From a virus: DNA of 31,518 bases. The position numbers and the translations under genes were made by a program. The notes beneath the pieces were generated by a model. The model made no database searches. It was not told the origin of the DNA and saw nothing but the letters and a program-made list of their open reading frames with translations. Numbering within the stretch: position 1 is the stretch's first letter; each line of letters starts with the position of its first letter. This document shows positions 107 through 30,718 of the stretch, one piece after another. Location: UHGV virus genome UHGV-0133195; one strand, written 5' to 3'.

Positions 107-121
107 AACAGATTGTTTTTT
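107..121. other. Candidate attL core (left copy of 15-bp direct repeat AACAGATTGTTTTTT)
   Basis: Exact 15-bp match to 30704-30718; lies about 100 bp beyond the 3' end of the integrase gene, as expected for a P2-type int-att arrangement. Confidence 0.4.
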
Positions 122-227
122 ATGTGGTGATGAAAAATCAATGATTTACCTTTATTTTCAATTGGTTGTTTGCTAATCGGCTCTATTGAAACCTAATCAA
201 ATCTGAGTGATTGGGTCAAAATGTGGA

Positions 228-1214
228 TCACTTTTGCCCCCTCATGAACACTGGATTTAATGTAATGGCGTCCTGTAAATAATCAGGTGCAAGGTGTGCA
301 TATGCCATTGTTTGATTAATTGAAGCATGGCCCAGAATTTTTTGCAGAGTGAGTATATTTCCACCGTTCATCATAAAGTGGCTGGCGAAGGTGTGCCTCA
401 TTACGTGGGTAGCCTGACCAGCAGGTAAATCAAACAGACCTTTCAATATGTCACGGAAAGCGAAATAGTCAGCATCGGGGAAAATGCTTCCTGATTTACG
501 GTTTTTGGTGATCTCATCATGCAGCGATGCGCTAATGGGAACCGTTCGATTTTTACCGTTTTTTGTATCAGTGAAAACAGCTTTGTATTTCAGAATGCGC
601 GAACGTTGGATTTGTGCAGCCTCATCCCATCGCGCACCAGTGGACAAGGCAAATTTTGCGAGGCGTAGATTGTCACCGTCCAGGGCAAGCAGTAGTTGCT
701 CAATTTGCGATGAGGTAAGAAATATTTTCTCGTTTTCCGTGGTTTTAACACGGGGAAGATTAGATAGGGGGTTGCTTTGTGAATACTGACCAGCCTTAAT
801 TAGTGCGGTGAAAACGCCACTGAGCAAAGCATGTTCCCGGTTAATGGTAGTAGGGCTGATACCGGCAAGTAGCCGGTTAGCCCGATATTCGGTAAACATC
901 TTTTTGTTAATGTCACCGGCGCTAGGGTTGCTGAGTTCGTAGCATATGCGATCCAGCTCAATCCGCATGATTTCCCCAGATTTTAAAGATTGGCCGTGAT
1001 ACTTCCACCAGGCTGCGATCAACTCCTCCAGAGTTCGGGTATCTTTCTTATCATCAACCATCCATTCTTTGTTGTTGTAATTCGAGACAGCCCACCGTTC
1101 GAAGCGTAGCGCTTCCGCGCGGGTGGCAAAGCGCCGACGCAGCCGCACACCCTTGCGGCCCTGTGGTCGCAAGTCCACCATATACCGACCATCTTCAAGT
1201 TTGTTGATCGTCAT
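228..1214 (-). CDS. int: Tyrosine recombinase (phage integrase, P2 Int-like)
   Basis: C-terminal catalytic region with HxxR-type motif (VMRHTFASH) and ...LGHASINQTMAYAHL ending typical of tyrosine integrases; first in-frame ATG at 1214 (MTINKLEDGRY...); the track ORF extends upstream to 1283. Confidence 0.9.
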   Translation of the reverse strand: MTINKLEDGRYMVDLRPQGRKGVRLRRRFATRAEALRFERWAVSNYNNKEWMVDDKKDTRTLEELIAAWWKYHGQSLKSGEIMRIELDRICYELSNPSAGDINKKMFTEYRANRLLAGISPTTINREHALLSGVFTALIKAGQYSQSNPLSNLPRVKTTENEKIFLTSSQIEQLLLALDGDNLRLAKFALSTGARWDEAAQIQRSRILKYKAVFTDTKNGKNRTVPISASLHDEITKNRKSGSIFPDADYFAFRDILKGLFDLPAGQATHVMRHTFASHFMMNGGNILTLQKILGHASINQTMAYAHLAPDYLQDAITLNPVFMRGQK

Positions 1215-1353
1215 TTGTGTTACCTGGTTTGTCTGAGTTTTAGATGTTTTTAATTTCAATACACTTTTAGTTAACAAGAACATTCGTTAACCCAGAAATC
1301 ACGGTAGTGACAGATGCCACCTTTACCCCATCGTTTCATTATTTCCGAAGCAA

Positions 1354-1656
1354 CTACCCAACCTTTTTCGTCTTTTGGGGCTTCGATGTGCTCTCGCATC
1401 CATTAGGGGAGAGAGCCGGACTGATCTGCCCGGCAGCTTCATTTGTTTCACCATTCATTAACCACGTCGTGTATTTTTTGAACATGGGGTGATTGGTTAT
1501 TTTCATCACGGTATCAATCCCAATATTCTCCCTTCTGCCGAGTTCATACTCCTTTTGTGTTGTCTCCGGTATTCCTGTTAATTCAAAGAATTGAGTTCTG
1601 GTTAGCCCCTCGGATTCTCTTACTTCTCTGATTTTTTTACCTATGCTTGTTGACAT
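1354..1656 (-). CDS. Immunity repressor, P2 C-type (about 100 aa)
   Basis: Small protein adjacent to and co-oriented with int, divergent from the early operon; by recollection resembles P2 C (KYTTWLMNGE and GQISPALS segments). First in-frame ATG at 1656 (MSTSIGKK); the track start at 1695 is a TTG. Confidence 0.7.
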   Translation of the reverse strand: MSTSIGKKIREVRESEGLTRTQFFELTGIPETTQKEYELGRRENIGIDTVMKITNHPMFKKYTTWLMNGETNEAAGQISPALSPNGCESTSKPQKTKKVG

Positions 1657-1710
1657 GGTGGCAATCGCCTCCCTATACTCGCCGCATGGAGGCAATTGCC
1701 GCCATCGTGA

Positions 1711-1747
1711 TAATCAAATCTATTCAGCTCTAATCGAATCTGAATAG
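1711..1747. promoter_or_regulatory. Operator-like repeats in the repressor / early-operon intergenic region
   Basis: Direct repeats TAATCAAATCT (1711-1721) and TAATCGAATCT (1731-1741) 20 bp apart, overlapping an 8-bp inverted repeat CTATTCAG (1720-1727) / CTGAATAG (1740-1747). Confidence 0.35.
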
Positions 1748-1768
1748 CCCAAACGATGAGGATAAAAC

Positions 1769-2029
1769 ATGCGGACAAGCAAAACAAAGCCATTGGTGAT
1801 GTCGGTGCAGGGTTGCCCCGTGATTTTTTGCATCCCCCAGCCGCGTATGACCGTTGAGCAGTACGCCCAGATGACCAATCAGGGGTTGAGAGCCGTTCAA
1901 CAGCAAGTTGACGCTGGAAAGTTCATCACTGCTAAAGGCAAATACGGGAAATACCGCGAGATCAATATGGTGGCTGAATTTCTTAAAGAATTCAGGGATG
2001 CGCAGGAAGCATTAAAAGAGAGCGCATAA
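1769..2029 (+). CDS. Cox/Apl-like small DNA-binding protein (excision and switch regulator), putative
   Basis: First gene of the rightward early operon, directly opposite the repressor; GAGGA Shine-Dalgarno 6 nt upstream of the ATG; size and position match P2 Cox; sequence similarity judged by eye only. Confidence 0.5.
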   Translation: MRTSKTKPLVMSVQGCPVIFCIPQPRMTVEQYAQMTNQGLRAVQQQVDAGKFITAKGKYGKYREINMVAEFLKEFRDAQEALKESA

Positions 2030-2067
2030 AAGTATATCCAGTACTTTTCAATTTGACGGAGATCAAC

Positions 2068-2289
2068 ATGGACTTATCACAATGCCCTTCACTTGCCAGC
2101 CTGCTTACCCACGGCCAGCAGATCACCCACCGTCAGCATCAACGCGGCTGGATTGAAACCCCGGACGGGCGTTTCTTCCAGCCTAAAGCGGCAGATGTTC
2201 AATTTGTTAAAAACTGCCGTTTACCGTTTATGTCACGCCCGCGTAATAAGCGCCGCTGGTTTTCCCGCTTAATGGGTATCTTCGCGTAG
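2068..2289 (+). CDS. Hypothetical early protein (73 aa from ATG at 2068)
   Basis: ORF in the early operon with GGAG upstream of the ATG at 2068; the track start at 2053 is a TTG; basic C-terminus; no recognisable motif. Confidence 0.45.
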   Translation: MDLSQCPSLASLLTHGQQITHRQHQRGWIETPDGRFFQPKAADVQFVKNCRLPFMSRPRNKRRWFSRLMGIFA

Positions 2290-2304
2290 TTCGGGGAGGT
2301 GGTT

Positions 2305-2694
2305 ATGTTGATGGATAAAACAGGACAACAGCCCGGCCGCCGCCAGTTCTTAGAGCAACGTGCGCGGCTGCAAGCCAGTTTGAACGCCTCACGTGTGAAT
2401 GACACTGCAACCCGTTTTAACCGCCTGGATGATGCCTGCAAAAAGGTGATTTTCATCCTGGCAAACGATGCGTCCAGATACATAGCCGGAATGCCGAAGC
2501 TGACCGCCAAACAGTTGGGTTGCACTTACGAAAATCTAACCGAAAAGGAGCAAACGTGCCTTTTGATGGGCATTAAGCGCCTTTCCGAATTTGCAGCATC
2601 AATGCCGTGGGAATTTGAGGACTACGCCGCACCACGCGCCGAAATTCAGGCGATACGCGACAAACCACCCGCGCCAGATAACGCAGTCAATTAA
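2305..2694 (+). CDS. Hypothetical early protein (about 129 aa)
   Basis: ORF preceded by GGGGAGG; ATG at 2305 (the track uses a GTG at 2299); function unknown. Confidence 0.5.
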   Translation: MLMDKTGQQPGRRQFLEQRARLQASLNASRVNDTATRFNRLDDACKKVIFILANDASRYIAGMPKLTAKQLGCTYENLTEKEQTCLLMGIKRLSEFAASMPWEFEDYAAPRAEIQAIRDKPPAPDNAVN

Positions 2695-2764
2695 CAACTA
2701 ACTACCCACAAAAAAGAGACAGGCGCTAACGCGTCGGGCTTCTTGCACCCTGGAGAAAGTAAAA

Positions 2765-3748
2765 ATGATTCGATCTCTCGTTAAATGGCCCGGTGGTAAA
2801 GGCCGCGTTATGCCTGATTTGCTGCCGATTCTGCCGAAAGCCGATTGCCTGGTGGAACCGTTTGTCGGCGGTGCTTCTGTTTTCCTCAATACTGAATATC
2901 GCCGTTATATCCTGGGTGATATCAACCCAGATTTAATTAACCTGTATCGCCAGATAACCCGCTGGCCTGATGCGGTGATCGACGCTGCTCGCCCGCTGTT
3001 TAAAGTGTACGGTGATAAAGACGGCTATAAGTGGATCCGCGACGATTTCAACGCTCGCGCCCATGACCTTCTGTCATCGCGCAATGTGTTTGAGGACGGA
3101 CCGGACGCGGGCAAGATTCTTCGTGCAGCACAGTTTCTTTACCTGAACCGTCACGGATATAACGGCGTAGTGCGCTACAACCAACAGGGCGGATATAACG
3201 TTCCCTTTGGTAGACACAAAACCCCGCCTTACTTCCCGGAAGAACAGATCCGTTTATTCTCTGAAAAAGCTAACGACACGAAAGCTATTTTCGTGTGCTG
3301 CGATTTCCAGAGCACGTTAAAAATCATGATTGGTAGTGACGCAGTTATCTACTGCGATCCGCCATACCTGCCAACAAGCGAAACCGCTAATTTCACCCAA
3401 TACCACACCGCCCCGTTTGGGATTAAAGAGCATCGCCAGTTAGCTGCAGCCCTGCTGGATATTAACCGCCTTACTGGTTCGCCGGTGATCCTGTCCAATA
3501 GCGACACCCCAGCCACCCGCGAGATTTATCGCGCTTTCAACTTCCAGGAAATCAGCGTTAACCGTTCTGTCAGTGCGAACGCCATTACCAGAGGGGCCGC
3601 CAGTGAAGTGATTGGCGTCCTGAAAGTGTGTAGCGGCTGCGGTCGTGCCGGTGGTGGCCGTTGCCCTGATTGTGGCCCTGTCATGGGTAACGCGACCTAT
3701 AACGAAATGCTGGCAACGGCTGCGGCCTATGGCGTGGAGCCGTTCTGA
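2765..3748 (+). CDS. N6-adenine DNA methyltransferase, Dam-like, with C-terminal Cys4 zinc-ribbon-like tail
   Basis: N-terminal WPGGKG and FVGGASVF motifs and catalytic DPPY (CDPPYLP); C-terminal CSGCGRAGGGRCPDCG cluster. Confidence 0.85.
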   Translation: MIRSLVKWPGGKGRVMPDLLPILPKADCLVEPFVGGASVFLNTEYRRYILGDINPDLINLYRQITRWPDAVIDAARPLFKVYGDKDGYKWIRDDFNARAHDLLSSRNVFEDGPDAGKILRAAQFLYLNRHGYNGVVRYNQQGGYNVPFGRHKTPPYFPEEQIRLFSEKANDTKAIFVCCDFQSTLKIMIGSDAVIYCDPPYLPTSETANFTQYHTAPFGIKEHRQLAAALLDINRLTGSPVILSNSDTPATREIYRAFNFQEISVNRSVSANAITRGAASEVIGVLKVCSGCGRAGGGRCPDCGPVMGNATYNEMLATAAAYGVEPF

Positions 3749-3975
3749 TGGTCACAAAACTGCAGATCTCATGCGCTGCGCCGGTAGGTGTCTGCGGTCA
3801 CGCAGCTGCCGAGCTGCGCCGCTTTTCTCGCGGCGTCAAAAACTATTCCCGCATCAAACCAAATTTTTACCTGGTGATCCGCATCGGTAGGCGCTGGCGC
3901 TTGCTGAGTAAAAACGGCGGCAAGGTCTGGTCACTGATGACACATGAAAAATACAACGTTGAGAGCAAGAAATGA
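3748..3975 (+). CDS. Small hypothetical protein (75 aa) translationally coupled between two methyltransferase genes
   Basis: ATG at 3748 overlaps the upstream TGA (ATGA) and its own TGA overlaps the next ATG at 3972; Arg/Lys-rich; no recognisable motif. Confidence 0.45.
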   Translation: MVTKLQISCAAPVGVCGHAAAELRRFSRGVKNYSRIKPNFYLVIRIGRRWRLLSKNGGKVWSLMTHEKYNVESKK

Positions 3976-4862
3976 CCGCTGCTTACTACAACGAAATCGA
4001 TCCATATGCAGCCCAGTGGCTGCGCAACCTTATGGCTGCGGGGTTGATTGCCCCTGGCTTTGTTGATGAAAGGAGTATTGAAGATGTCACACCCGCCGAT
4101 CTGCGCGGATTCACTCAAGTTCACTTCTTTGCCGGGATTGGTGTTTGGTCATATGCCCTGCGCCGCGCTGGCTGGCCGGACTCCAGACCAGTCTGGACAG
4201 GTTCTTGCCCGTGCCAGCCTTTCAGCCCGGCAGGCAAGGGAAAGGGATTTACTGACGAGCGGCACTTATGGCCCGCCATGCATTGGTTGGTTGGGCAGTG
4301 CGATCCTGTCGTTATCTTTGGCGAGCAATCTGCAAGCGCTGACGCAAATGACTGGATCGACCTTGTACAAGCAGACATGGAAGCAATGGGATATGCCTTC
4401 GGGGCGTGTGCGTTTCCGTCTGCGAGCGTCGGCGCACCGCACATCCGTGACAGAGCTTACTGGGTGGCCGACACCAACCGCGAGCAATACAAAGAATGCT
4501 TACCAGGACGCGCAGAAAGTCATTGCGCGGAGGCTTGCTGGCCGTCAGTCGAACTTACAAGATTTTGCCTGTCTGGCGGGGTGGCCTACACCAGCGGCAA
4601 GGGATCACAAAGGGGGGTATCAGGGGGCAGGATGCGCAACGGGAAGCTGTCAACGGACACTCTGGATGTGGTGGCACAGATAGCAGGCCCGGCCCGGTTA
4701 ACGGTTTCTGGGGATCTGCTGACTGGTTGTTCTGCCAGGATGAAAAGTGGCGGCCAGTTGAACCCGAACTTGTCCCGCTGGTTGATGGGGTTGCCTCCAG
4801 AGTGGGACGCCTTCGCGCCTACGGAAACGCCCTCAACGTTGAAGCGGCAACAGCGTTCATAA
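3972..4862 (+). CDS. C5-cytosine DNA methyltransferase (small, phage-type)
   Basis: Motif I-like FFAGIG, motif IV GSCPCQPFSPAGKG (catalytic PCQ), motif VIII-like HIRDRAYW, motif X-like LMGLPPEWD near the C-terminus. Confidence 0.75.
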   Translation: MTAAYYNEIDPYAAQWLRNLMAAGLIAPGFVDERSIEDVTPADLRGFTQVHFFAGIGVWSYALRRAGWPDSRPVWTGSCPCQPFSPAGKGKGFTDERHLWPAMHWLVGQCDPVVIFGEQSASADANDWIDLVQADMEAMGYAFGACAFPSASVGAPHIRDRAYWVADTNREQYKECLPGRAESHCAEACWPSVELTRFCLSGGVAYTSGKGSQRGVSGGRMRNGKLSTDTLDVVAQIAGPARLTVSGDLLTGCSARMKSGGQLNPNLSRWLMGLPPEWDAFAPTETPSTLKRQQRS

Positions 4863-4886
4863 AGGCTTACATGATGGGGGCATCCC

Positions 4887-7523
4887 ATGTCTGACGCCGC
4901 TTTTGCATGGTCCTGGAACGCGCCGCGCCCAGCTGTTGGCCTGTACACCTACGAACCGAAAAAAATCGCCCCGCTTGCCGGGGCGGTGGCGCATCATCCT
5001 GCCGTAAAAAAACACATCGATCACATCTTCAAACGCGCCGGTTACAACCCCGACGATGTTCGCGACCGTAACGCGCTTATCCAGGCGCTGGACAGGTACG
5101 AACCGTGCGGCCTGCCACTGGCCGCCCATCAAAATATAATCCGGCAGGAAATGGAAGCCGCCAAAGCTACGGCGGCAGCCTGGGCCAATACGCCGGAAGG
5201 TGTCGAAGCGCGTTTATTATCAGAGCCGTTCTTCATTCGTGAAGTCTGGCGCAAAAAAATTGAATGGTTACGGGCCAACCGTGAAGCCAGACACACCAAT
5301 GATTTTCTTATGGGGACCGTGAAAAAATCATTGCTGCGTCTTGATGTTGTGCGCACAAGGCAAGGTGTTTCGCCTGATCTCACCGGCGAACTGGCCGCGT
5401 ACTGGTTCGGGCGCTGGCAACGACTGGCTGATTTCACAAAGCGGGAGGCACTAAGCGCCGCTAATGAGATCGCCAGCCGCATGGCTGAAATGCTTGGGAC
5501 GGAATGCGAAGCCCTGGGGCGGAATGTTTCCGACATGAACGTCGAAGAACTGGACTGGCTTTATTGCCACCTGGGCCGCGAAATGCTGGCGCTTCGTATT
5601 GTGCCGCCTGCATGGTATGCGCCGTGGGAACGCGAGCGCATATGCACGGCCATTTTGCGTATGGCTTCGCCTGACTGGTGGGGGCGCAAAATCTGGCGCT
5701 TGCGTTGTGACTGGCGCGAGAACCAGCTGCGTGCTGTTGGCGCGGTAAATAAAAAAGCGCACGCCTACGTTAGCGCTTCCAGCCTGATCGAGTGGCAGGA
5801 ACAGCGCCGTAAAAACCGGGATTTTTTCAAAAGTCATGAACTGGTAGACGAAGACGGCAACGTTTCGTCGCTTGAGGAAATGATTAATAAATCCACGTCT
5901 AACCCGGCTATTCGTCGCCATGAGCTTATGGCCCGAATGGCTGGGGTTGAACTTGTCGCCCAAAGTCGCGGCGATGTTGGCATCTTCCTGACCATTACTT
6001 GCCCGTCGAAATATCACAGCAATATTGCGTCCGGCCACCATAACGCCAAATGGAATCATTCCACCGTCGCCCAGGCGCAGCGCTATTTATGCCGTGTATG
6101 GAACCGGGCAACCGCCAAACTGAAACGCGAAGATTTGCGCCCTTATGGCTTCCGCGTCGCCGAACCGCATCACGATGGGACACCACACTGGCACGCGTTG
6201 CTATTTATGCCACAAGAGCAGGTTAAAGCCACGGTTGCGATCCTTCGCGCCTACTTCATTGCGGAAGACCGCGACGAGCTGGGTCGCAATACCGGTGCTC
6301 GTTTCAAGTCAAAAAAAATGGACCCACGGAAAGGGTCAGCAACGGCGTATATCGCCAAATACATTTCGAAGAATATCGACGGTCACGCGCTGGCCGGTGA
6401 ACTGGACGACGAAAGCGGCAAGCCGCTGAATGAAACAGCCAAATATGCAATGGCCTGGGCGTCACTCCACCGCATCCGCCAGTTTCAGCCCATCGGACAG
6501 CCGCCCATATCGGTTTACCGCGAGCTGCGCAAACTGAGCAATCAGATCACGACCCGCCAGAAAATTGACAATACCTTCAAGCGCGGTGCGCCGTTGCTTG
6601 TGGATCCTGCAATGGATGCGGTTTGCGCCGCTGCCGATGTCGGGTGCTTTGCTACCTACATCATCCGCCAGGGTGGTGTTTTGATCCCGCGTGAAAACTA
6701 TGTCGTCCGTCTGGCCTATCAGCCAGCTGATGAAATGAATGCTTATTGTGAGATCCCCGAAAAGGTTTTCGGGGTCTGGTCGCCGCGTCTGGGTGATGCC
6801 TCCCGTATTTGCACCCGTCTGGTTAAGTGGAAAATCCGCGCCAAATCCAAAGCCACCACCGAGGCCAAAAACGGCCCCGGTTTGGGGGTTGCCCTTTTGC
6901 CGTCGCCAACCGGCGACGCTTGGAGTTCTGTCAATAACTCTACGGAAGACGAAAAAATCACCGATTTTTCACTGTCAGAAATGGCTGTGCCAGCTGACGG
7001 AGAGTTAAAGACAGAAGATTCAGACGATGAAATCGTCGATTTTGAAAATATGGACCAGCCAACGCGGCGCAAATTGATGCGGCGACTACGTGAAACACCA
7101 TTCAAAAGGCAGCAAAGCGGATCACCTTATGAGCCAGGGAGCGAATTAGATGTTGCCTGGCGTTCTGCCGTTGAAAAAACCGAGGCCAGATCGGCGGCTG
7201 ACAAGGCCAGGCGGGCAGCGCTTGCCCCTGCGGTTGCCAGTCTGCTGGCTGATGCGGCGTTGTGTTCGGTTGAGATTTCAGAGATTCAGGCCGTTTCGCT
7301 GTTAATGGGGAGCCGTCTGGAGATTGGCGGCAAAGTTTATCGGGCCAGTGCTGGCGGCCAGTTGATAACGCGTCAATTACCCGATGAGTCACGGACGGTG
7401 AATAAATTATGGGACCGTCTGCGGGATAACCACGGCATAGATGCCACGCGCCTGCGGTTTGATCCGGTCGGGGAGCATCAAAAAATGCTGGCAGGCGCGG
7501 AAGGTCGCCACCCAAAAGAATGA
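4887..7523 (+). CDS. A: Rolling-circle replication initiation endonuclease (P2 gpA-like, HUH superfamily)
   Basis: HUH motif PHWHALLF and paired catalytic tyrosines in AYIAKYISK; 878 aa, last gene of the early operon. Confidence 0.9.
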   Translation: MSDAAFAWSWNAPRPAVGLYTYEPKKIAPLAGAVAHHPAVKKHIDHIFKRAGYNPDDVRDRNALIQALDRYEPCGLPLAAHQNIIRQEMEAAKATAAAWANTPEGVEARLLSEPFFIREVWRKKIEWLRANREARHTNDFLMGTVKKSLLRLDVVRTRQGVSPDLTGELAAYWFGRWQRLADFTKREALSAANEIASRMAEMLGTECEALGRNVSDMNVEELDWLYCHLGREMLALRIVPPAWYAPWERERICTAILRMASPDWWGRKIWRLRCDWRENQLRAVGAVNKKAHAYVSASSLIEWQEQRRKNRDFFKSHELVDEDGNVSSLEEMINKSTSNPAIRRHELMARMAGVELVAQSRGDVGIFLTITCPSKYHSNIASGHHNAKWNHSTVAQAQRYLCRVWNRATAKLKREDLRPYGFRVAEPHHDGTPHWHALLFMPQEQVKATVAILRAYFIAEDRDELGRNTGARFKSKKMDPRKGSATAYIAKYISKNIDGHALAGELDDESGKPLNETAKYAMAWASLHRIRQFQPIGQPPISVYRELRKLSNQITTRQKIDNTFKRGAPLLVDPAMDAVCAAADVGCFATYIIRQGGVLIPRENYVVRLAYQPADEMNAYCEIPEKVFGVWSPRLGDASRICTRLVKWKIRAKSKATTEAKNGPGLGVALLPSPTGDAWSSVNNSTEDEKITDFSLSEMAVPADGELKTEDSDDEIVDFENMDQPTRRKLMRRLRETPFKRQQSGSPYEPGSELDVAWRSAVEKTEARSAADKARRAALAPAVASLLADAALCSVEISEIQAVSLLMGSRLEIGGKVYRASAGGQLITRQLPDESRTVNKLWDRLRDNHGIDATRLRFDPVGEHQKMLAGAEGRHPKE

Positions 7524-7579
7524 ATGCAATCGCGCTGACCGTCGCAACTGGTTGCGTCGGTTGGCGTGATTCTGCGGGT

Positions 7580-7605
7580 GCGGGCGGCAAAGAGCCCGCG
7601 TTTTT
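7580..7605 (+). terminator. Putative rho-independent terminator after gene A
   Basis: Stem GCGGGC (7580-7585) / GCCCGC (7594-7599) with 8-nt loop, followed by TTTTT (7601-7605). Confidence 0.5.
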
Positions 7606-7627
7606 AGCATGTGAAAAGTGAGGAAAG

Positions 7628-7828
7628 ATGAAAGTAAAAATTGGTTTTAATCACAGGAAAAATACCGTTTCGGGCGTGATTTGCGGCTGGTCTTGGGAGA
7701 AGGAAGAGATTCGGGCTATGGCCGAAAAGTTAGTCGAAGGGTGGTGCGAAGATGGTGTCGCCGTTGGCAAGAGCGGGCTTTTTGGTCTTAGGGTGAAAGT
7801 GACTGTCAATGGTACCGCACGATCATAA
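7628..7828 (+). CDS. Small hypothetical protein (66 aa)
   Basis: ORF with AGGAAAG Shine-Dalgarno upstream of the ATG; first gene in the A-to-Q accessory slot; no motif recognised. Confidence 0.45.
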   Translation: MKVKIGFNHRKNTVSGVICGWSWEKEEIRAMAEKLVEGWCEDGVAVGKSGLFGLRVKVTVNGTARS

Positions 7829-7917
7829 TCGGCAGTGCTGGCCATTTGTATCGAGGACGGTCATTTTTAACAGTGCTGCAGGTCAGGAATGGCCGTGCCA
7901 GCTGAGGGCGGGAAAGT

Positions 7918-8610
7918 ATGAGTTACCTGGGAAGTAAAGCGGCCAGCGGGGTCTTTCAGAAAATCATTGCCGAAATGCCCCCGCATGATACCTACATTGA
8001 AACGCATCTGGGCAGCGGTGCGGTGATGTTCCATAAACCGCCAGCCCAGCATTCTGTCGGGATTGATATTGATTCAGCTGCATTTTCGCTGACAAGGCGG
8101 CGCTGGAAAGATAAAGGATTAACGCCCCCTGACATCCATTTCCATTATGGCGATGCTGTCAGCTTTCTGGAGGGATATTTTGATTTTGCGACTGCGGGCC
8201 GGGTACTGATTTACGCCGATCCTCCTTACATGCCGGAAACGCGCACCAGTCGCGCCCGTTATCGCCATGAATACACCGTCGCCGATCATGAGCGCCTTTT
8301 ACGTTGCCTGATGTCACTGCCGGAAAATGTGAGTGTCATTTTGTCTGGCTACCCGTCGCAGCTTTATGACAGCACGCTGACCGGCTGGCGAACGCGGGAA
8401 TTTCAGGCCATGACGCGGGGCGGTGTGCGAACGGAAAAAATCTGGATGAATTATGAGGAAGGGAAAGCCTATTCCCACACCTTTGCCGGAAAGGACTACA
8501 ACGACCGGGCCAGGATAAAACGTAAAGCGGCACGCTGGCGGGATAAGTTCGCCGCCCTGCCGCCAGCGGAACGGCTGGCAATTATGACCGCGCTTTGTGA
8601 TGTCGAATAA
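7918..8610 (+). CDS. Second Dam-like N6-adenine DNA methyltransferase (short, 230 aa)
   Basis: YLGSKAAS and THLGSGAVMF motifs followed by catalytic DPPY (YADPPYMP); GGGAAAG Shine-Dalgarno upstream. Confidence 0.8.
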   Translation: MSYLGSKAASGVFQKIIAEMPPHDTYIETHLGSGAVMFHKPPAQHSVGIDIDSAAFSLTRRRWKDKGLTPPDIHFHYGDAVSFLEGYFDFATAGRVLIYADPPYMPETRTSRARYRHEYTVADHERLLRCLMSLPENVSVILSGYPSQLYDSTLTGWRTREFQAMTRGGVRTEKIWMNYEEGKAYSHTFAGKDYNDRARIKRKAARWRDKFAALPPAERLAIMTALCDVE

Positions 8611-8612
8611 AA

Positions 8613-8633
8613 AAGCCCGCTTTATGCGGGCTT
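8613..8633. terminator. Bidirectional rho-independent terminator between convergent genes
   Basis: Perfect 8-bp stem AAGCCCGC / GCGGGCTT with 5-nt loop, flanked by an A-run upstream and T-rich sequence downstream; sits between the stops at 8610 (plus) and 8637 (minus). Confidence 0.6.
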
Positions 8634-8636
8634 CGT

Positions 8637-8903: not shown

Positions 8904-8959
8904 GTTCACCATCCCGCACGCCATTGCTAACAATGGGGATGATTTTAACTTAATTGCGC

Positions 8960-11829: not shown

Positions 11830-12005
11830 GCGGCTATTATGGCGGGATTATTTTGCAGAATTGATAATTAAATATCGGTAAAAAGTGGCTAACAATTTAT
11901 AACCGAATACATAAGAAATAAAGCGGTCGCGCTGTTTTAATCAATTCGCAATACTGACCACCACAAACGAATCATTGTTATTAAATTCATTATTAAAGGT
12001 CAGTT

Positions 12006-13067: not shown

Positions 13068-13095
13068 CAGCCATTCTTTTCAGGAATAAAAGATT

Positions 13096-18167: not shown

Positions 18168-18171
18168 CACG

Positions 18172-19751: not shown

Positions 19752-19752
19752 T

Positions 19753-23376: not shown

Positions 23377-23962
23377 GTTTTCGAAGTTGCTTGCCGGTCT
23401 GAAATTGCCGTCGTGGCTGAACAAAGGCGACCCCGCAAGGCTGCTGCGGGCCTGCGTGAATTTCTGGTCGCAGGTGTACGGGTGGATCACCTGGCCGTTA
23501 AAGCAGTTTGACCCGCTGGTCTGCCCCGAACCGCTGTTAAACCTGATTGCCTGGGAACGCGACATCGATCGGTTTAAGGGGGAGCCGCTCGACATCTTCC
23601 GCAAACGGGTGAGTTACGCATTCATCAATGCGCAGCAGGCCGGAGAGGTGGCGGGCTTTATTGCCATTTTTGAGCGACTGGGGATTGGTTACGTTGAATT
23701 ACTGGAACGGCAGGACGGACTCGACTGGGACGTGATCGTCGTTCGGGTGACAAACAGCCAGATTGCGGAAAATGGTGATCTCCTGCTGGAAATCATCCGC
23801 AAATACGGGCGCACATGCCGCCGTTACCAGTTTGAAGTGATCACCGCCCTGCCGCTGAATATCAATATTGGCTGGTATCAGGGGGAATATATTTGCTGGC
23901 CTGCCACCCTGGGCGATGTGATTAACCAGCCCGAGGCAACGTACAGCGCAAGTTTGAAGTAG
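23369..23962 (+). CDS. Baseplate / tail protein, gpI-like
   Basis: About 197 aa from ATG at 23369 (the track uses a TTG at 23363); immediately precedes the tail fiber gene. Confidence 0.5.
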   Translation: MTEFSKLLAGLKLPSWLNKGDPARLLRACVNFWSQVYGWITWPLKQFDPLVCPEPLLNLIAWERDIDRFKGEPLDIFRKRVSYAFINAQQAGEVAGFIAIFERLGIGYVELLERQDGLDWDVIVVRVTNSQIAENGDLLLEIIRKYGRTCRRYQFEVITALPLNINIGWYQGEYICWPATLGDVINQPEATYSASLK

Positions 23963-23973
23963 AGGGAAGACCT

Positions 23974-25977
23974 ATGTCACAGGCCGTTATTACAAAAGTA
24001 TTTTCAGAATGGAAAGCCCAGCAGGCAATTAATAATCAGCCCGTCACGCTGGATGAATTTATTTTCGCATATATTCCGGGGCTGGATGCTGATAAGCCGA
24101 TTGATAATACCGAGACAACACCCGCAGCGGATAAAATTGTTTGTCGTCAGGCTGTGAGCAAATCCGGCGTTGTGAATGAAAATTCTGTCGTTTATTCCGT
24201 CACCCTGGGGGCGGATGTGGGCGATTTTGATTTCAACTGGATCGGTCTGGCAAATAAAGCCACCGGTACACTGGCGATGATTATTCACGCCCCGACCCAG
24301 CGCAAAATCAAAAATGCGAACGGCCAGCAGGGAAACGTGCTGGTTCGTTCCATGCTGATGGAATACAGCGGAGCCAGGGAAGCAACGGAAATTACCACCC
24401 CGGCAGAAACATGGCAGATTGATTTTACTGCCCGTCTGGCGGCAATGGATGAACGCCAGCGCCGCGAAAATATCGATCTGTATGGCGCAGCGGCATTTTT
24501 TGATTCTGGCTATCTGGTCGCAAAGTCCGGTAATCAGTTCTTTGTCACAAAGGGGGCGGGATACGTCGCCGGGTTACGTGCTGAACTGCCCGCAGACCTG
24601 AACATCAACGCAGCCGCGAAGCCGACAAAGGTCTGGCTTGATGTCAGCTGGACCGGGACGTTAACGAGCGAATGGGTAGTACAGAGCAAAATTACCGTTG
24701 CTGCAGATCTTGCCGATTATGTGCTGGGCGGTGTGCAGCATTATGTCTTTGCGGTGGCGAGTATTGATGCTGCCGGAAATATCACGGACCTGCGCCCGAA
24801 AGGCACGCTTAACGACCAGGCGGCCAGTGATGCACTGAGAAAGCATGAACAGTCCCGAAATCACCCTGATGCCACGACCAGCGAGAAAGGATTCACCCAG
24901 TTAAGCAGTGCAACGGATAGTACCAGCGAAGAACTGGCCGCTACATTGAAAGCGGTTAAAATCGCGATGGATAACGCCAACGCGCGTCTTGCAAAAGAGC
25001 GTAACGGTGGAGACATTCCTAATCCAGCCTTGTTTGTTCAAAACATTGGTTTGCAGGAAACAGTTAACAAGGCCGCCGGAGCAGTGCAGCGAAGTGAGGT
25101 CCAGACTTCGCAGGATGATGTTACTGCCGGAAAATTGCTGGTTAATGGTAGCGCTATTGCTGTTCGTAGCATCAGTGCAATCAATGAAGGACAGGTAGAC
25201 GATGCTAATAACCTTCCGGTTAATGCAGTATCGTTTGTCTATGGTGATGCCAAAAACTCACCGAGTGGAAATACAGGGACCATCCTGGATGTTTCCGGGC
25301 TTGGTAGCGGTTATAGCATCCAGCTATTCGCTAACTACTCAACAGGCGAAATACTGGCGTTTCGTGCGCGTAATGGTGATAACAGAACATGGAATAAATG
25401 GAATTTTGTGTTTCACACTGGAAATAAACCAACCTCTACAGATGTGGGTGCGCTACCTATAACAGGTGGTAATTTAAAGGGGCAACTTTCCTTTTCATTC
25501 TCACAACCCAGAAATGGCGCTAACCACTTAATATACAACGGCGATGATAAAGGAATACTGGCTTGCGGATATGGTTATTATCAGGACAGATTTGATATTC
25601 ATTTTTATGATGAAAAAGGTGCGTGGGAATCAAATCCATTAACCATTGGGCGCAATGGAAATACGACAGTTAGTGGTAATTTGTCAGGGCGTGCTGTTTA
25701 TGAAGGTAACATTCGCGTTTATTCACCAAACAACCCGCAGCCCGTTAGCTTTGAAGGTTATGCGACGCAAAGCTGGGTATTGCAGAACTTTGTCCAGAAT
25801 ATCGACCTGACTGCGCCTACTGAATTTCAGTTTTGGGATGGACGGGGTTACATGCGGGCGACTGATGGTGCGGCTATGTATAACTTTTCAATGGTGGGCG
25901 GTTCCAGCAACGTTGGCTGGATTCAGATCCGCTATACACGAAAACTGGTGAATAACACCTGGTATGTAATTAATTAA
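23974..25977 (+). CDS. Tail fiber protein (gpH-like) with compositionally distinct C-terminal receptor-binding region
   Basis: 667-aa protein followed by a fiber assembly gene; the 3' third is visibly AT-rich relative to the 5' part. Confidence 0.8.
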   Translation: MSQAVITKVFSEWKAQQAINNQPVTLDEFIFAYIPGLDADKPIDNTETTPAADKIVCRQAVSKSGVVNENSVVYSVTLGADVGDFDFNWIGLANKATGTLAMIIHAPTQRKIKNANGQQGNVLVRSMLMEYSGAREATEITTPAETWQIDFTARLAAMDERQRRENIDLYGAAAFFDSGYLVAKSGNQFFVTKGAGYVAGLRAELPADLNINAAAKPTKVWLDVSWTGTLTSEWVVQSKITVAADLADYVLGGVQHYVFAVASIDAAGNITDLRPKGTLNDQAASDALRKHEQSRNHPDATTSEKGFTQLSSATDSTSEELAATLKAVKIAMDNANARLAKERNGGDIPNPALFVQNIGLQETVNKAAGAVQRSEVQTSQDDVTAGKLLVNGSAIAVRSISAINEGQVDDANNLPVNAVSFVYGDAKNSPSGNTGTILDVSGLGSGYSIQLFANYSTGEILAFRARNGDNRTWNKWNFVFHTGNKPTSTDVGALPITGGNLKGQLSFSFSQPRNGANHLIYNGDDKGILACGYGYYQDRFDIHFYDEKGAWESNPLTIGRNGNTTVSGNLSGRAVYEGNIRVYSPNNPQPVSFEGYATQSWVLQNFVQNIDLTAPTEFQFWDGRGYMRATDGAAMYNFSMVGGSSNVGWIQIRYTRKLVNNTWYVIN

Positions 25978-25989
25978 AGGTAAATAAAA

Positions 25990-26526
25990 ATGCAGAGCTT
26001 CGGCAAATTCACCCCATATATGCCAGACACTACTGACAGACCAAAAATTATTGATGGTCAGAACGTTATGTTTTTGCAGGATGACAAAGGTAATGACTGG
26101 TATGACGTTATTAAGTTATTTGATGAATCAAAGACACTAAAAATTGGCTATGACGATGATGGCCGTGTAAGAACATTCACAACGAATATTCATGCCTTTT
26201 TCCCGGTCAATATGAGCGTTGTTGAGCTTTCAGCAACAAAAGCTAATTTGCGCGTCGCGCTGGGCGATGACTGGTTTTATAAAGACGGGAAACTGCAGCA
26301 AATCCGCGATCACCAGGCTAACGCTGAGGCCGAACGTAACAGCCGTATGGCGGACGTTACAACGCGGATTGACTGGCTGGAAGATGCGCAGAAGGACGGC
26401 GATATCTCAGCCGACGAAGAAAAAGAACTGGCAACACTGCGGGCTTATCGCACCGAGTTGCGTCGTCTTGATCTGGCTGGTGCGCCAGATATTGACTGGC
26501 CGGAGGTTCCGGGCGATGTGGCGTGA
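25990..26526 (+). CDS. Tail fiber assembly protein (Tfa, gpG-like)
   Basis: 178-aa protein directly after the fiber gene; AT-rich 5' portion continuous with the fiber 3' end, then a GC-rich 3' portion. Confidence 0.7.
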   Translation: MQSFGKFTPYMPDTTDRPKIIDGQNVMFLQDDKGNDWYDVIKLFDESKTLKIGYDDDGRVRTFTTNIHAFFPVNMSVVELSATKANLRVALGDDWFYKDGKLQQIRDHQANAEAERNSRMADVTTRIDWLEDAQKDGDISADEEKELATLRAYRTELRRLDLAGAPDIDWPEVPGDVA

Positions 26527-27238
26527 ATCGGTTGTAAAGATTGCTGACGATATGGGGGCGCTGGCCTGTTCCATTGTGCCAGCGCATCCCTGGGTTTACG
26601 GGCTGGGACAGAACACGGATTCAGGCGGTTATCTTAGTCCGGCCAATGCGATGGGGTATCTTGCTAAAAAGCTGTTATCCGGTGGCGGTAGCGGTGACGT
26701 CATCGTCATGATGGTGGCGGAAAATACCCATGACGCTTTTATGCAGGGACTGAATAAACTGTCCACCGTATTTCCGGCCCCGGTATTTACACAGGTAAGC
26801 CGCATGGCCGCCGCCGCCGCAGAACTCAGCACGGTAAAAATGCAGTTGCCGGTTAAAGCCGATGTATTGCCAGCCAGTGCGCCGTTATCCGTTTCAACCA
26901 ACCGGCTGGCGCTGAATGCCCAGCGTGTTGCCGCCGCGCAGCTGGCCGCCGCAGTCAGTACCACCACAACAGATCTAAAAAATCAGGTTACGGGATTTAT
27001 TCAGGAACGGGCCGGTTTGCTGGCATCACTCAGCCAGGGACTGGACGACCTGAAAGCCGCCAGCGCGAACATTTTTTCATTCAGTTACAGCGGAAGTTAT
27101 GCCGTTGCTGCCGCTGAATTGCTGAAAGGCATCCCGCAAACAACGGCAGTGCATACTGCCGCGATGATGTTTATCGGGGATTCGTTATCTGACTTAGGGA
27201 AGATGCTACATGAGCCAGACCGCATTACTCGCGCTTGA
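26516..27238 (+). CDS. Hypothetical protein (240 aa), Ala-rich, function unknown
   Basis: ATG at 26516 overlapping the tfa stop (the track ORF starts at 26219); no recognisable catalytic motif. Confidence 0.5.
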   Translation: MWRESVVKIADDMGALACSIVPAHPWVYGLGQNTDSGGYLSPANAMGYLAKKLLSGGGSGDVIVMMVAENTHDAFMQGLNKLSTVFPAPVFTQVSRMAAAAAELSTVKMQLPVKADVLPASAPLSVSTNRLALNAQRVAAAQLAAAVSTTTTDLKNQVTGFIQERAGLLASLSQGLDDLKAASANIFSFSYSGSYAVAAAELLKGIPQTTAVHTAAMMFIGDSLSDLGKMLHEPDRITRA

Positions 27239-27752
27239 TGGTGAAGGGATCGCCATGCAGAACATGCTGGTTTCACCCTCTATGCAGTTTCAGGAGAAGG
27301 ACCAGTCGGGCCAGACATCGAGCACGGCCAATGCTGAACAGGGTATCAAGGCCAAAGAGCTGCGCGTGTCGGGTCTGGTGACATTTGACGACGAAGCCGT
27401 CTTACAGCGGCTTTTCCAGCTGGCATCCGCAACCGAAGCCAGCGGCGCGTTAAAAAAGTACCGCGTCGCCAATGCGACGGCGACGGCTATCAACCTTCGC
27501 GAAGCCACGTTCACCGGTCAGATTGATGCCGTACCGCAGGAGGATCGCCTTGCCTGGCAGGTAAGTTTCACCCTGCGTGAAAAAGGCAGCGTCCCGGAAA
27601 AACGACAGGCCCGAAAAGGCAACGCGACGGCCAGCACCAAGCAAACAGGGGCAAAGGGCGCGGGTCCGGCTGCCGGTGCTGATGAACCAGCCGACAAAAT
27701 GAGCTGGTTTGAAGAAAAAGTCTTAAAGCCGGTCAACGATGCGCTGGGGTAA
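27210..27752 (+). CDS. Hypothetical protein (180 aa), possibly tail-associated
   Basis: ORF overlapping the previous gene by 29 nt, immediately upstream of the hub-spike gene; a gpU-like tail terminator role is possible by position only. Confidence 0.4.
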   Translation: MSQTALLALDGEGIAMQNMLVSPSMQFQEKDQSGQTSSTANAEQGIKAKELRVSGLVTFDDEAVLQRLFQLASATEASGALKKYRVANATATAINLREATFTGQIDAVPQEDRLAWQVSFTLREKGSVPEKRQARKGNATASTKQTGAKGAGPAAGADEPADKMSWFEEKVLKPVNDALG

Positions 27753-27759
27753 TTAAACG

Positions 27760-29484
27760 ATGAAACCAATTAAACGCCTGTACCTTTCCTCTGATCCGGT
27801 CCATCTGATTGACTGCAATATCGTGCTGGAGCTGAACGCGTGCGGTCGGGGGTTTATTACGGCGGGGACAGAGACAGATTACACCGGCAAAATGGTGCGG
27901 ATCGATGTTGGTTATGATGGTCTGGTCCTGCGCTGGTTTACCGGGTATGTCGAACGGTCACAGCCTGCTGATAATGGAACATGCCGGTTGTTCGTGCGTG
28001 AGCTGATCGGCATCTTTGATAAATTGTGGCCGTGTTCTTTCCAGCATCCAACGCTTCGCCAGATTACTGACTGGATAAGTGAGCAAAGCGGGCTGGCCGT
28101 CACAACGCCGGTCGGCGCTGCTTATGCAGATAAACCGATCCCCCATTTTACGCACAGCGGAACGGGCTATCAGCTTCTTGCCAGTCTGGGCCGCGCATTT
28201 ACAGTGACGGATTATCTTTGGTATCAGCTGCCGGACGGGGACGTCTTCGTCGGCGCTGCGGAGCACAGTCTTTTTGCGGGTAAGCCAGTGGAGATCCCGC
28301 ACGAATTTAGCCAGGCATCGGCGGGCGGTAATTCAATGGTTGTGCCGATGATTCAGAGCCTGCGACCAGGTGCGGAAGTGAACGGCCAGCGGGTGAATCA
28401 GGTCCGGCTAAATAACGACGACATGGCAATTACCTGGCAGCCTCGCAACAAAGCCACCGGCCAGCCATTGCAAAAATCACCGATTCAGCGGCAGATAGAA
28501 AACGCATTCCCGGAGCTGGCAAGCGGCCTGCATCTTCCAAAATTCGCCAGGGTGGAAGCACCAAGCGAGGATGTATCAGGGGGGAATATTGCCGATCCAT
28601 TCCGCCCGCGCTATGCCGTGGATCTCCAGCTGCTTGACGAAGACGGCAAGCCAGCCGCAAATACGCCGGTCTATTCTGCCGTTCCGCTACCTGTACCAAT
28701 GGCGGGCAGCGAGTCGGGAATGTTTCAGTTTCCGCCCCCTGGCACGCTGGTTGAAGTTGGATTCACTGAGGGACGGCAGGATAAGCCCTTTGTGCGCCAG
28801 ATTATGGCGGAGGGTCATAACCTGCCAGCGGTTAAACCCGGCGAGCAGTTGCAGCAACAGCGCGATGGTGTATCGCAGCGCGTGACGGTTGCCGGAGACT
28901 GGGAACGCCAGACGGACCAGACAATCCGCGAAAACTCCATGACTCGCGAAGTCACCACCGACGAAGAGATCCGCAAAGTGGTTGTCCGTGAAACTACGGT
29001 CCAGGCAACGGATAAAACAACCGTGCTTGGCACGGCCACACTTCTGGCCGGGGCGGTGGTCCATATCAGCGAGGGGGATTACAGCGTCGGCACATCCGGC
29101 AACCTGACAGTAACCTGCAGCAAGGACAATTCCGTCAGTGTTGGCCGGAACGTGAAACGGGACGTCGCGGGCAATGTAACAGACGACGTAAAAGGGAATG
29201 TCACGTCAAACGTCAGCGGCGCACTGACCGAAAAAATCAGCGGTATCCGCCGAAGTGTGGCCAAGGCGCAACAGATGATTGCCCCGGTGGTAAAACTGGG
29301 AAGCGAAGAGATTAACGTCCTGACACTACTCACCGACACCCTGGACGTGGTGAGGGAACTGGCAGAGACTGCCGCGTCACATACTCACCCCAATACAGGG
29401 GCCAGCGGGCAGGCTGCGCAGTTCACCGCAACGGCCACTAAAACCGGCACATTGAAAAGCAAATACGGTCCCCTGATAGCCTGA
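27760..29484 (+). CDS. Baseplate hub-spike protein (VgrG-like architecture)
   Basis: 574 aa; central segment MFQFPPPGTLVEVGFTEGRQDKPFV resembles the gpV/gp5 OB-fold signature; downstream repetitive GNVTDDVKGNVTSNVSG (beta-helix-like) and C-terminal SHTHPN (HxH, as at the P2 gpV spike apex). Confidence 0.55.
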   Translation: MKPIKRLYLSSDPVHLIDCNIVLELNACGRGFITAGTETDYTGKMVRIDVGYDGLVLRWFTGYVERSQPADNGTCRLFVRELIGIFDKLWPCSFQHPTLRQITDWISEQSGLAVTTPVGAAYADKPIPHFTHSGTGYQLLASLGRAFTVTDYLWYQLPDGDVFVGAAEHSLFAGKPVEIPHEFSQASAGGNSMVVPMIQSLRPGAEVNGQRVNQVRLNNDDMAITWQPRNKATGQPLQKSPIQRQIENAFPELASGLHLPKFARVEAPSEDVSGGNIADPFRPRYAVDLQLLDEDGKPAANTPVYSAVPLPVPMAGSESGMFQFPPPGTLVEVGFTEGRQDKPFVRQIMAEGHNLPAVKPGEQLQQQRDGVSQRVTVAGDWERQTDQTIRENSMTREVTTDEEIRKVVVRETTVQATDKTTVLGTATLLAGAVVHISEGDYSVGTSGNLTVTCSKDNSVSVGRNVKRDVAGNVTDDVKGNVTSNVSGALTEKISGIRRSVAKAQQMIAPVVKLGSEEINVLTLLTDTLDVVRELAETAASHTHPNTGASGQAAQFTATATKTGTLKSKYGPLIA

Positions 29485-29550
29485 CAAAAAGCGGCATAAC
29501 CGCACACCTCACCAGACACCACAGAACGCGCCACAACAGGCGCAAATATT

Positions 29551-29580
29551 AAAGGCCGCCACCGTGCGGCCTTTCTTTCG
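29551..29580 (+). terminator. Rho-independent terminator after the tail operon
   Basis: Stem AAAGGCCGC / GCGGCCTTT with 6-nt loop CACCGT followed by a T-rich tract (TTTCTTTCG). Confidence 0.6.
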
Positions 29581-29688
29581 TTCGTTCAACAGCGGCCCAC
29601 AGCGTAAGCGACAGCAGGCAGGCGGAAGCGGATCCAGGACGGAAACGGCGCTACACCGCACCCGCCTGCGCAGTTTGGATCATAAAAA

Positions 29689-29800
29689 TTTTGCAAAGGA
29701 AATTTTGTGCAAAGTACCCCGCCAGCCTGCGACGCTGCTGGGCTTTTGCATCCTGCGGGCGTTTGCACGCTGCGCAAAGATTTGCAGCACTTTGCAAAAG
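29689..29800. repeat. Array of TTTGCA / TTTGCAAA motifs, including four tandem 10-bp units
   Basis: Palindromic TTTGCAAA at 29690-29697 and 29791-29798 (third copy at 29970-29977, outside this span); TTTGCA at 29745-29750, 29762-29767 and 29781-29786; decamers gTTTGCAcgc / TGCGCAaaga / TTTGCAgcac / TTTGCAaaag at 29761-29800. Confidence 0.5.
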
Positions 29801-29993
29801 TCACCGCGCCGCCAGTTGCTAACCGACTGGATAACATGATGTTTTTAAAAGGATCGTTTTAGTTTCCGTCACGATCAAATGCGGCTAGGGGTTGTATGGG
29901 AATATTTGGCGGGAATTCTGCGAAGCCTTGCGGCGCAAGGCTTTAGGGGGAAAACTTCATGATTTGGGTTTTGCAAAATAATGCTAAGAAGGA

Positions 29994-30524
29994 TCAATCA
30001 GGTAGGCGGCCTTTAGTCACCTCAAAATCAATCAGTTTGTTTGTTTTCGTATCAAGTGTACAAGAATACGTCATATTAACTTTGGCGTTAAAACCATTGG
30101 TAAATTTCAGCTTATCGCCCACATAAACAATCTGGTTCTGTTCCGGTTTGTTAATGTACCGACTAAAGATATTTTCAAATGCACCATTGGTCCATTCGAA
30201 ATCATACTTTGAAGTTTTCTCAATAGGGCTTTTACAGGCTACCAAAGCATCAACCAAATGGGCTTCAAAAATACACTGCCCATCATTCTTATCACACACC
30301 TTAACTTTTGGCTCATCTTTGGCCGTTGCCTCTTCATCACCGCTGAAATACCAGTAACCAATCCCAGCCAGCACTAAGAGAACGATAAAACCGCCAAACG
30401 CATCGCTTGCTTTGACGCCTGGATTTTTGACACCACAATGAGGGCATGTCTTTGCCTTGGATGAAATCTCTTTTTTACACTCTTTACACTTAACCAATGC
30501 CATCTGATAAACCATCCTTTTCAT
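29994..30524 (-). CDS. AT-rich cargo gene: N-terminal zinc-ribbon, single transmembrane helix, C-terminal domain of unknown function
   Basis: CKECKK ... CPHCG zinc ribbon, hydrophobic helix FGGFIVLLVLAGIGYWYF, then about 110 aa with conserved Cys; visibly lower G+C than the phage genes; first ATG at 30524 (the track start at 30536 is a TTG). Confidence 0.55.
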   Translation of the reverse strand: MKRMVYQMALVKCKECKKEISSKAKTCPHCGVKNPGVKASDAFGGFIVLLVLAGIGYWYFSGDEEATAKDEPKVKVCDKNDGQCIFEAHLVDALVACKSPIEKTSKYDFEWTNGAFENIFSRYINKPEQNQIVYVGDKLKFTNGFNAKVNMTYSCTLDTKTNKLIDFEVTKGRLPD

Positions 30525-30703
30525 CTGGATAACCAAGAAACCGAAGTCTAACGGCTACGTGCATTCAGGAAAAGGAAAAAGCCCAGCAGTATCTGCAAGG
30601 CTTTGAGTTGGTATCACAAGGACTAACACTTCGACGTGGTCATTTTGTGGACCTATTAATATAAAAATCAATTAAAATCAATGTGTTATGTTGAATGTAA
30701 AAT

Positions 30704-30718
30704 AACAGATTGTTTTTT
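30704..30718. other. Candidate attR core (right copy of 15-bp direct repeat)
   Basis: Exact copy of 107-121; immediately adjacent to the stop codon (30719-30721) of the MurR/RpiR-family gene. Confidence 0.4.

Follow-up and report, generated by a model that had tools for sequence, protein, structure and literature searches.

Where exactly does the prophage in UHGV virus genome UHGV-0133195 begin and end, and by what kind of recombination did it enter its host chromosome? The window, by which we mean the whole 31,518-nucleotide stretch that was analysed, carries the 15-bp sequence AACAGATTGTTTTTT near both of its ends. An initial annotation had proposed these two copies as prophage boundaries left by P2-type integration, with moderate confidence because the repeat is short and T-rich. 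Our analysis raises that confidence to high. We put the probability at about 0.93 that the copies are the cores of the left and right attachment sites (attL and attR) of a 30,597-bp Peduoviridae prophage (P2 family, Irrigatiovirus-like), inserted by conservative site-specific integration into a chromosome of the Citrobacter freundii complex. The argument draws on the following elements, in which attP and attB denote the attachment sites of phage and host, respectively, and IHF denotes integration host factor.

107–121: attL core, AACAGATTGTTTTTT; the identity common to attP and attB, with the same junction in 8 other lysogen contigs
30704–30718: attR core, AACAGATTGTTTTTT; abuts the regulator stop codon at 30719–30721, with the same junction in contigs L183–L187
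228–1214, minus strand: int, P2-family tyrosine integrase of 328 aa; Pfam Int_N and Phage_integrase, PHROG integrase
30537–30703: attP P arm; arm repeats, a AAAATCAAT pair and a match to the IHF consensus
122–227: attP P′ arm; arm-repeat candidates, AAAATCAAT and an IHF-consensus match
113–121 (attR equivalent 30710–30718): putative strand-exchange interval TTGTTTTTT, adjoining the stop codon

The repeat, the empty site and the attP junction

Across the whole window, AACAGATTGTTTTTT occurs exactly twice, both times on the plus strand. No further copy was found in the window when one mismatch was allowed, and dinucleotide shuffles expect 0. Of the window's direct repeats that span more than 20 kb, it is the longest. 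When the two end regions (1–230 and 30537–31000) were compared, the 15-mer itself was the longest exact match, a length reached in 0 of 1,000 shuffles (maximum 13). The right copy ends at 30718 and is directly followed by TTA at 30719–30721, which is the TAA stop codon of an RpiR/SIS-type regulator open reading frame (ORF) on the minus strand. The minus-strand integrase gene ends with a stop codon at 228–230, and 106 nt downstream of it comes the left copy. No tRNA or tmRNA gene (ARAGORN, 0 genes) and no Rfam family (0 matches) was found at the site. The placement of both copies, including the contact with the regulator gene and the position just downstream of int, and the absence of a tRNA are thus as initially annotated, and the repeat itself exceeds shuffle expectation.

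Aligning the flanks with prophage-free relatives, as the initial annotation had proposed, revealed the uninterrupted host site. In C. braakii (L003), C. pasteurii (L004) and the metagenomic contigs L174–L182, the left flank, a single core and the right flank are contiguous; these nine contigs were recovered among those that encode exactly the window's regulator. The empty site reconstructed by joining positions 1–121 to 30719–31518 equals contig L180 exactly over 476 bp across the junction. In C. pasteurii, the empty site reads ...AATAGCGTAA AAAAACAATCTGTTTTTTT GATGTAACAAATCACATTTACGCTATTTTGTTATATCGTGAC..., that is, right flank, one core and left flank, and attB can be written as CATCAAAAA-AACAGATTGTTTTTT-T(T)ACGC. 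With one genome considered per species, the regulator protein is 100% identical in C. braakii ATCC 51113 and C. pasteurii CIP 55.13, and 90–99% identical in other Citrobacter, Enterobacter, Klebsiella, Phytobacter, Kluyvera, Lelliottia, Raoultella and others. A search of 5,426 complete E. coli genomes with the right (regulator) flank found nothing; by this comparison the host is not E. coli, where both the regulator and the attachment site are absent.

The layout of the site is conserved well beyond Citrobacter. Of 80 loci kept, 77 had an anchorable, alignable region downstream of the regulator, and all 77 show the regulator stop codon followed directly by an A-run-CA, three variable bases and a TG-T-run, after which they are colinear with the reverse complement of window positions 1–106. 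The homopolymer between the core G and the regulator stop (window 30713–30720) ranges from 5 to 8, mostly 7 or 8, among L003–L013 and L174–L187: it is 8 in the window and in L179, L180 and L183, and 7 in most others. This polymorphism among strains accounts for the one-base difference between the window and the type strains. In hosts with seven A/T, the final base of the stop codon belongs to the core as well, whereas with the window's eight the core abuts the stop.

The same junctions recur in other lysogens. Eight further contigs (L163–L165 and L167–L171) with a 99%-identical integrase have the same attL, in each case followed by genes for a glycoside hydrolase family 1 (GH1) protein, adh_short and gcvP, and five contigs (L183–L187) have the same attR, followed by the regulator, ASCH, HlyIII and ygfZ.

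Joining the sequence left of attR to the sequence right of attL predicts the phage's own site as ...TAAAAT-AACAGATTGTTTTTT-ATGTGGTG..., with the junction ...TAAAATAACAGATTGTTTTTTATGTGGTG.... This junction was present only in L166, which belongs, together with L167, to an 80.7-kb metagenome contig (JGI 3300034521 Ga0310137_000167) in which 30,956 bp separate two copies of int. Host bglA comes after the downstream int, and after the upstream int come genes from the right end of another prophage copy. We read L166/L167 as a tandem double lysogen, two prophage copies head to tail at one attB and joined by an attP-type junction. The inter-copy junction, ...ATAAAATAACAGATTGTTTTTTATGTGGTGATG..., aligns to the attP reconstruction without gaps, and the predicted attP therefore exists physically.

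Three other origins of the repeat have to be weighed against site-specific integration at an intergenic core. The one that survives best, and it is still improbable, is integration of the tRNA-like kind into the 3′ end of a gene, whereby the true core would reach into the regulator coding sequence, with a new 3′ end brought in by the phage. The overlap of the core with the last base of the stop codon in seven-A hosts speaks for it. However, attP and attB part right at the regulator-side edge of the core (ATGTGG versus T(T)ACGC), and coding sequence is neither duplicated nor replaced, the regulator being 100% identical to that of non-lysogens. A core-type binding site for the integrase (Int) on the regulator side may nevertheless contact the last codons. 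That the 15-bp repeat is a chance A/T-rich match, with the real ends elsewhere, for example in a longer imperfect repeat, is a reading to which we give almost no weight: the repeat is short and T-rich, and imperfect similarity extends about 24 bp leftward (attL and attR are identical at 31 of 39 positions), but no shuffle reached 15 bp, and both the empty sites and the attP junction break exactly at the core, which already refutes it. A target-site duplication made by Mu-like or insertion-sequence-type transposition, which also yields direct repeats flanking an insertion, is equally negligible, as no transposase was found among about 15 window ORFs scanned (Pfam/PHROGs) or in the SI7 annotation, a tyrosine integrase lies beside the end, the same site and junctions recur in many independent lysogens, attP itself holds a core copy, and 15 bp is well above the 5-bp duplication that Mu makes.

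A P2-type integrase and its attachment site

The assignment to P2-type integration was likewise upheld. The int ORF can be extended to 1283, and database entries and the alignment with P2 start at Met24 of this long ORF, which is most probably the true start and gives 328 aa. The protein has Int_N (E 1e-31) and Phage_integrase (E 7e-18) domains in Pfam and is 99% identical to C. freundii integrase P0001. Identity to P2 Int is 46% in the alignment and 48.9% by tblastn, compared with 45% for 186 Int and 48% for SI7 Int. The catalytic residues R195, K218/K221, H270, R273, H296 and Y305 are invariant in the alignment with the P2, 186 and SI7 integrases. Three N-terminal positions have been proposed to tell P2-type arm recognition (Y, D, R) from 186-type recognition (W, E, Y) (PMC3448106). 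Y11, D14 and R16 of the window's Int align with Y11, D14 and R16 of P2, whereas 186 has W11, E14 and Y16.

The sequence next to int has the anatomy expected of a P2-type attP (offsets are counted from the first base of the core). On the plus strand, the P arm holds the repeats CGTGGTCA at 30635–30642 (−69) and TGTGGACC at 30646–30653 (−58), and the P′ arm holds the repeat candidates TGTGGTGA at 123–130 (+16) and TGTGGATC at 222–229 (+115), the latter, as in P2, running into the int stop. Four matches to tgTGGaCa, the arm consensus published for the P2 type, fall within 315 bp, against 0.9 expected, with two per arm on the same strand. The P-arm pair GTGGTCAttttGTGGAC, of the form GTGGTCA-N4-GTGGAC, has the 11-bp spacing of the P2 P arm (GTGGTCAatgtGTGGAC) and nearly the same sequence, and it is conserved in L166 and in a different prophage, L173. 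A further repeat, AAAATCAAT, occurs three times, at 30664–30672 (−40), 30674–30682 (−30) and 134–142 (+27); the two P-arm copies are conserved in L166. The IHF consensus WATCAANNNNTTR has only two matches in the 31.5-kb window, at −28 and +29, flanking the core. The first, the candidate IHF site AATCAATGTGTTA at 30676–30688, occupies the position between P arm and core that it has in P2, and L166 has kept it in its attP.

These elements suggest a familiar course of events. The P2-type Int (228–1214, minus strand) recombined attP with the host attB that follows the regulator stop codon, upstream of a bglA-like gene. Int bound to the arm repeats (GTGGTCA-N4-GTGGAC in P; TGTGGTGA and TGTGGATC in P′) would bridge arm and core sites in a P2-like intasome, IHF at 30676–30688 would bend the P arm, and the strands would be exchanged in the rightmost 9 bp of the core, TTGTTTTTT. 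For excision, a Cox-like protein (1769–2029) would act as directionality factor.

Where within the core the strands are exchanged is indicated by variant junctions. In L001, whose Int ORF and P′ arm are the same as the window's, attL reads AACAGTTTG, where the T at core position 6 is that of its host type, represented by Citrobacter sp. L011; in L165 it reads AACATATTG, with a host-type T at position 5 as in the L007 and L174 hosts; and a secondary site used in L172 differs from the core at positions 1, 3, 4 and 5. As host-derived bases persist to core position 6 in attL, these junctions suggest exchange within TTGTTTTTT. The palindrome AAAACA-N3-TGTTTT has its centre at core position 6, which would point to a symmetric overlap instead, in conflict with the junction data.

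Comparison with known systems places this Int/attP system beside that of P2. In P2 (Peduovirus P2, which uses attB locI, locH and others in E. coli), a tyrosine integrase of the same family has the same N-terminal Y, D and R. Its attP is likewise downstream of int, with P-arm repeats, IHF site, core and P′ repeats that overlap the int 3′ end (P2 annotation), and a C-type repressor and a divergent cox, or cox-like, gene follow int in both. The two differ in core length (27–28 bp annotated for the P2 attP, compared with 15 bp for AACAGATTGTTTTTT), in the host site, in the host itself (E. coli rather than Citrobacter and Serratia) and in the late genes, which are of Irrigatiovirus type in the window. 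P2 is known for several alternative attachment sites, and the secondary site with partial core identity in L172 is comparable. The P2-type integrases use intergenic attB sites outside tRNA genes, and other such sites have been catalogued (PMC3448106); the intergenic, non-tRNA attB of the window agrees with this. The integrases of 186, Fels-2 and HP1 type, which target tRNA or tmRNA genes, belong to the same broad family and have the same heterobivalent kind of attP. The 186 type differs from the window in its W/E/Y discriminators, as opposed to Y/D/R, and in its tRNA/tmRNA target, which is absent here, and the 186-type arm consensus YAYCGCCAYTY had no match in the window's attP. All the defining features of a P2-type Int/attP system that can be tested in sequence were found, and those of tRNA-type integration and of transposition were not. 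This is ordinary P2-family site-specific integration, with a textbook mechanism that poses no challenge to current understanding. Full-text literature searches returned no description of the attachment site, which on that evidence is a previously undescribed attB for a P2-family integrase.

Several observations weigh against this account, in whole or in part. The arm-motif enrichment is modest (Poisson p ~0.014), the two P′ arm repeats agree with only 6 of the 8 consensus positions, and the P′ IHF-like match, AATCAATGATTTA at 136–148, is not conserved in L166. The exchange interval was derived from three junctions, each of them an attL or secondary site, and assumes the same attP core throughout; the phage arm of L165 is somewhat diverged, and this phage may carry another core. 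The match behind the Cox-like assignment is weak (PHROG 575, E 2.7e-5). The exact attP junction had no match in IMG/VR (two scans, the first with a pattern that held a variable base) or in the metagenome collection scanned. As for the one tandem contig, its assembly might in principle have merged the integrated with the circular form, although such a merger, too, would need a real attP junction. Searching a phage collection with the reconstructed attP gave distant matches to the int catalytic region only, and no phage record with this attP.

Host genes on either side of the insertion

The host side of each junction, and the immunity genes and cargo at the phage ends, comprise the following features.

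30719–31462 (ORF to 31462/31468), minus strand: host MurR/RpiR-family regulator (HTH_6, rpiR family, plus SIS; Pfam), intact
1–106, minus strand: host left flank; upstream/promoter region of a bglA-like GH1 6-phospho-beta-glucosidase gene
1354–1695, minus strand: C-type immunity repressor (helix-turn-helix); PHROG 147 (E 2e-32), weak Pfam HTH matches
1769–2029, plus strand: Cox-like candidate excisionase/repressor of 86 aa, divergent from C; PHROG 575, 'Cox-like excisionase and repressor'
29994–30536, minus strand: cargo ORF, putative zinc-ribbon membrane protein of 169–180 aa, between the baseplate gene and attR in the swapped int/attP module

The chromosomal order was assembled from contigs that share one end of the prophage with the window. 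Contigs with the 99%-identical integrase P0001 give int, attL, a 477-aa Glyco_hydro_1 protein, adh_short and gcvP on the left, and contigs with the window's 574-aa baseplate protein give attR, the regulator, ASCH (yqfB-like), HlyIII (yqfA-like) and ygfZ on the right. The attB thus lies between the regulator stop codon and the bglA-like promoter region, in the order ygfZ-yqfA-yqfB-regulator | bglA-ygfF-gcvP. This is the ygfZ-yqfA-yqfB-bglA-ygfF-gcvP region of the E. coli K-12 map, to which an RpiR-type regulator upstream of bglA has been added. As the ATG of the bglA-like gene is immediately beyond window position 1, positions 1–106 are its upstream region.

This region contains a predicted sigma-70-like site (GTGACA-16-TAGACT) and a conserved 16-bp palindrome, ATGTGAtttgTTACAT, at 85–100, of the form ATGTGA-N4-TCACAT, which is perfect in Enterobacter and has TTACAT in the window. 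An inverted repeat, GTAACA...TGTTAT, is invariant in 77 species. The palindrome and the inverted repeat are likely operator sites. We considered TGTGATTTGTTACA in the left flank as a CRP site and rejected it, because its half-site spacing is 4 rather than 6; it is a conserved palindrome.

Integration leaves both neighbours whole. The regulator ORF is unchanged, its protein being 100% identical to those of the prophage-free C. braakii and C. pasteurii strains, and the bglA upstream region, including the 85–100 palindrome and the predicted promoter, stays entire beside bglA. Judged by sequence, neither host gene is altered by integration. In the lysogen, int is oriented towards bglA, and the regulator is oriented towards the phage cargo ORF at 29994–30536.

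Does attB itself have a function for the host? The A-run-CA/N3/TG-T-run palindrome after the regulator stop is kept in representatives of 77 Enterobacteriaceae species from more than 10 genera, and only its 3-nt centre varies. Given this conservation, it may be a functional cis element, such as a weak terminator or protein-binding site between regulator and bglA. We regard this reading, with an integrase lineage that tracks the element and lysogeny that alters host or cargo expression, as improbable. If it were true, insertion would put 30.6 kb between the regulator and its presumed target, int would read towards bglA and the cargo ORF would lie downstream of the regulator transcript, so that lysogeny could change beta-glucoside use or cargo-gene expression. 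A terminator at attB was tried as a candidate and rejected: the A/U hairpin after the regulator stop is weak (−5.1 kcal/mol, and −3.3 in attR), and terminator prediction gave none. A larger hairpin across attB, formed in Citrobacter by the regulator 3′ end and the left flank (−15.7 kcal/mol, z −3), was likewise rejected as a conserved RNA element, with neither conservation nor covariation in 77 species.

Other users of the site and exchange of the integration module

The attB is shared by at least two different Peduoviridae lineages. In L173 (Logan ERR11525732, 745–880), the same attB, again after an identical regulator, holds a different prophage of classical P2 type (ogr, gpD, sheath, tube). 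This prophage has the P arm TGTGGTCAaaaTGTGGCTG and shares four more A's with attB, an identity of at least 19 bp. In Serratia marcescens (L195; GCA_018165735.1, 3987–4870), an 82%-identical Int is found at a homologous site upstream of a GH1/bglA gene, with the junction ...AAAATAAAACAGGCTGTTTTTTT ATTGTGACAAATCAC...; this site, AACAGGCTG, differs from that of Citrobacter. In the Serratia prophage, int and the P′ arm are separated by two additional small ORFs, of 129 and 86 aa. The integrase lineage appears to track a homologous site across genera. An 86%-identical Salmonella integrase is associated with a different site of similar sequence, TAAAAACAATAC-TTTTTTT. The C. freundii integrase P0001 itself was found in L172 (Logan ERR7975805, 5080–5130) at the secondary site, beside csp, porin, drpB and HD-domain genes, where the junction has only ATTGTTTTTT in common with the core; the L172 host is not E. 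coli.

The body of the phage is closely related to known Salmonella phages. It encodes a Phage_GPA replication protein (Pfam) and has 96–98% nucleotide identity (~97% to SI7) to phages SI7, SW3 and SW5 (Peduoviridae, Irrigatiovirus) over 2083–25019 and 26463–29879, with which it shares the replication, head, tail and lysis genes in the same order. Three segments have no SI7 counterpart: 1–2082 (attL, int, repressor, cox-like), 29880–30718 (cargo ORF, P arm) and 25020–26462 (tail-fibre C-terminus). SI7 accordingly differs from the window in int, repressor, cox and attP arms (29880–30718 plus 107–2082) and in the tail-fibre C-terminus. As the first two segments are contiguous in the circular form, they amount to a single int/immunity/attP module of about 2.8 kb that has been exchanged. 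Because its Int is only 48% identical, SI7 presumably has a different attachment specificity. The swap of the tail-fibre C-terminus probably changes host range.

Within the module the gene order is attP, int, C repressor, divergent cox-like gene and fil, and the cox-like gene has the position of P2 cox. The repressor is probably the 100-aa form (1354–1656), the length of the gene call in L163. The cargo ORF is of low GC, and its translation reads as a zinc ribbon at the N-terminus and, after it, a stretch that appears hydrophobic and may span the membrane. SI7 lacks this ORF, which matches PHROG 13160, a family of unknown function; a PADLOC scan of it gave no match, and protein look-ups returned no record for the cargo protein or for P0016 (Enterobacter asburiae Int). 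As it is oriented like the host regulator, read-through from the regulator gene is conceivable. Elsewhere in the window are three DNA methyltransferase genes, at 2765–3748 (D12-class N6-adenine), 3972–4862 (C5-cytosine) and 7918–8610 (methyltransferase-like), with a 75-aa ParE_like ORF (3748–3975, assigned from the annotation of the homologous locus L163) between the first two.

For the family, the exchanged int/immunity/attP cassette is a clear case of a module swap that retargets integration. The P2-type set gains one more orthogonal recombinase/att pair, whose core is compact and A/T-rich. It is also fixed exactly where a Citrobacter prophage begins and ends, at 30,597 bp per unit, which helps annotation, curing and engineering in Citrobacter and Serratia.

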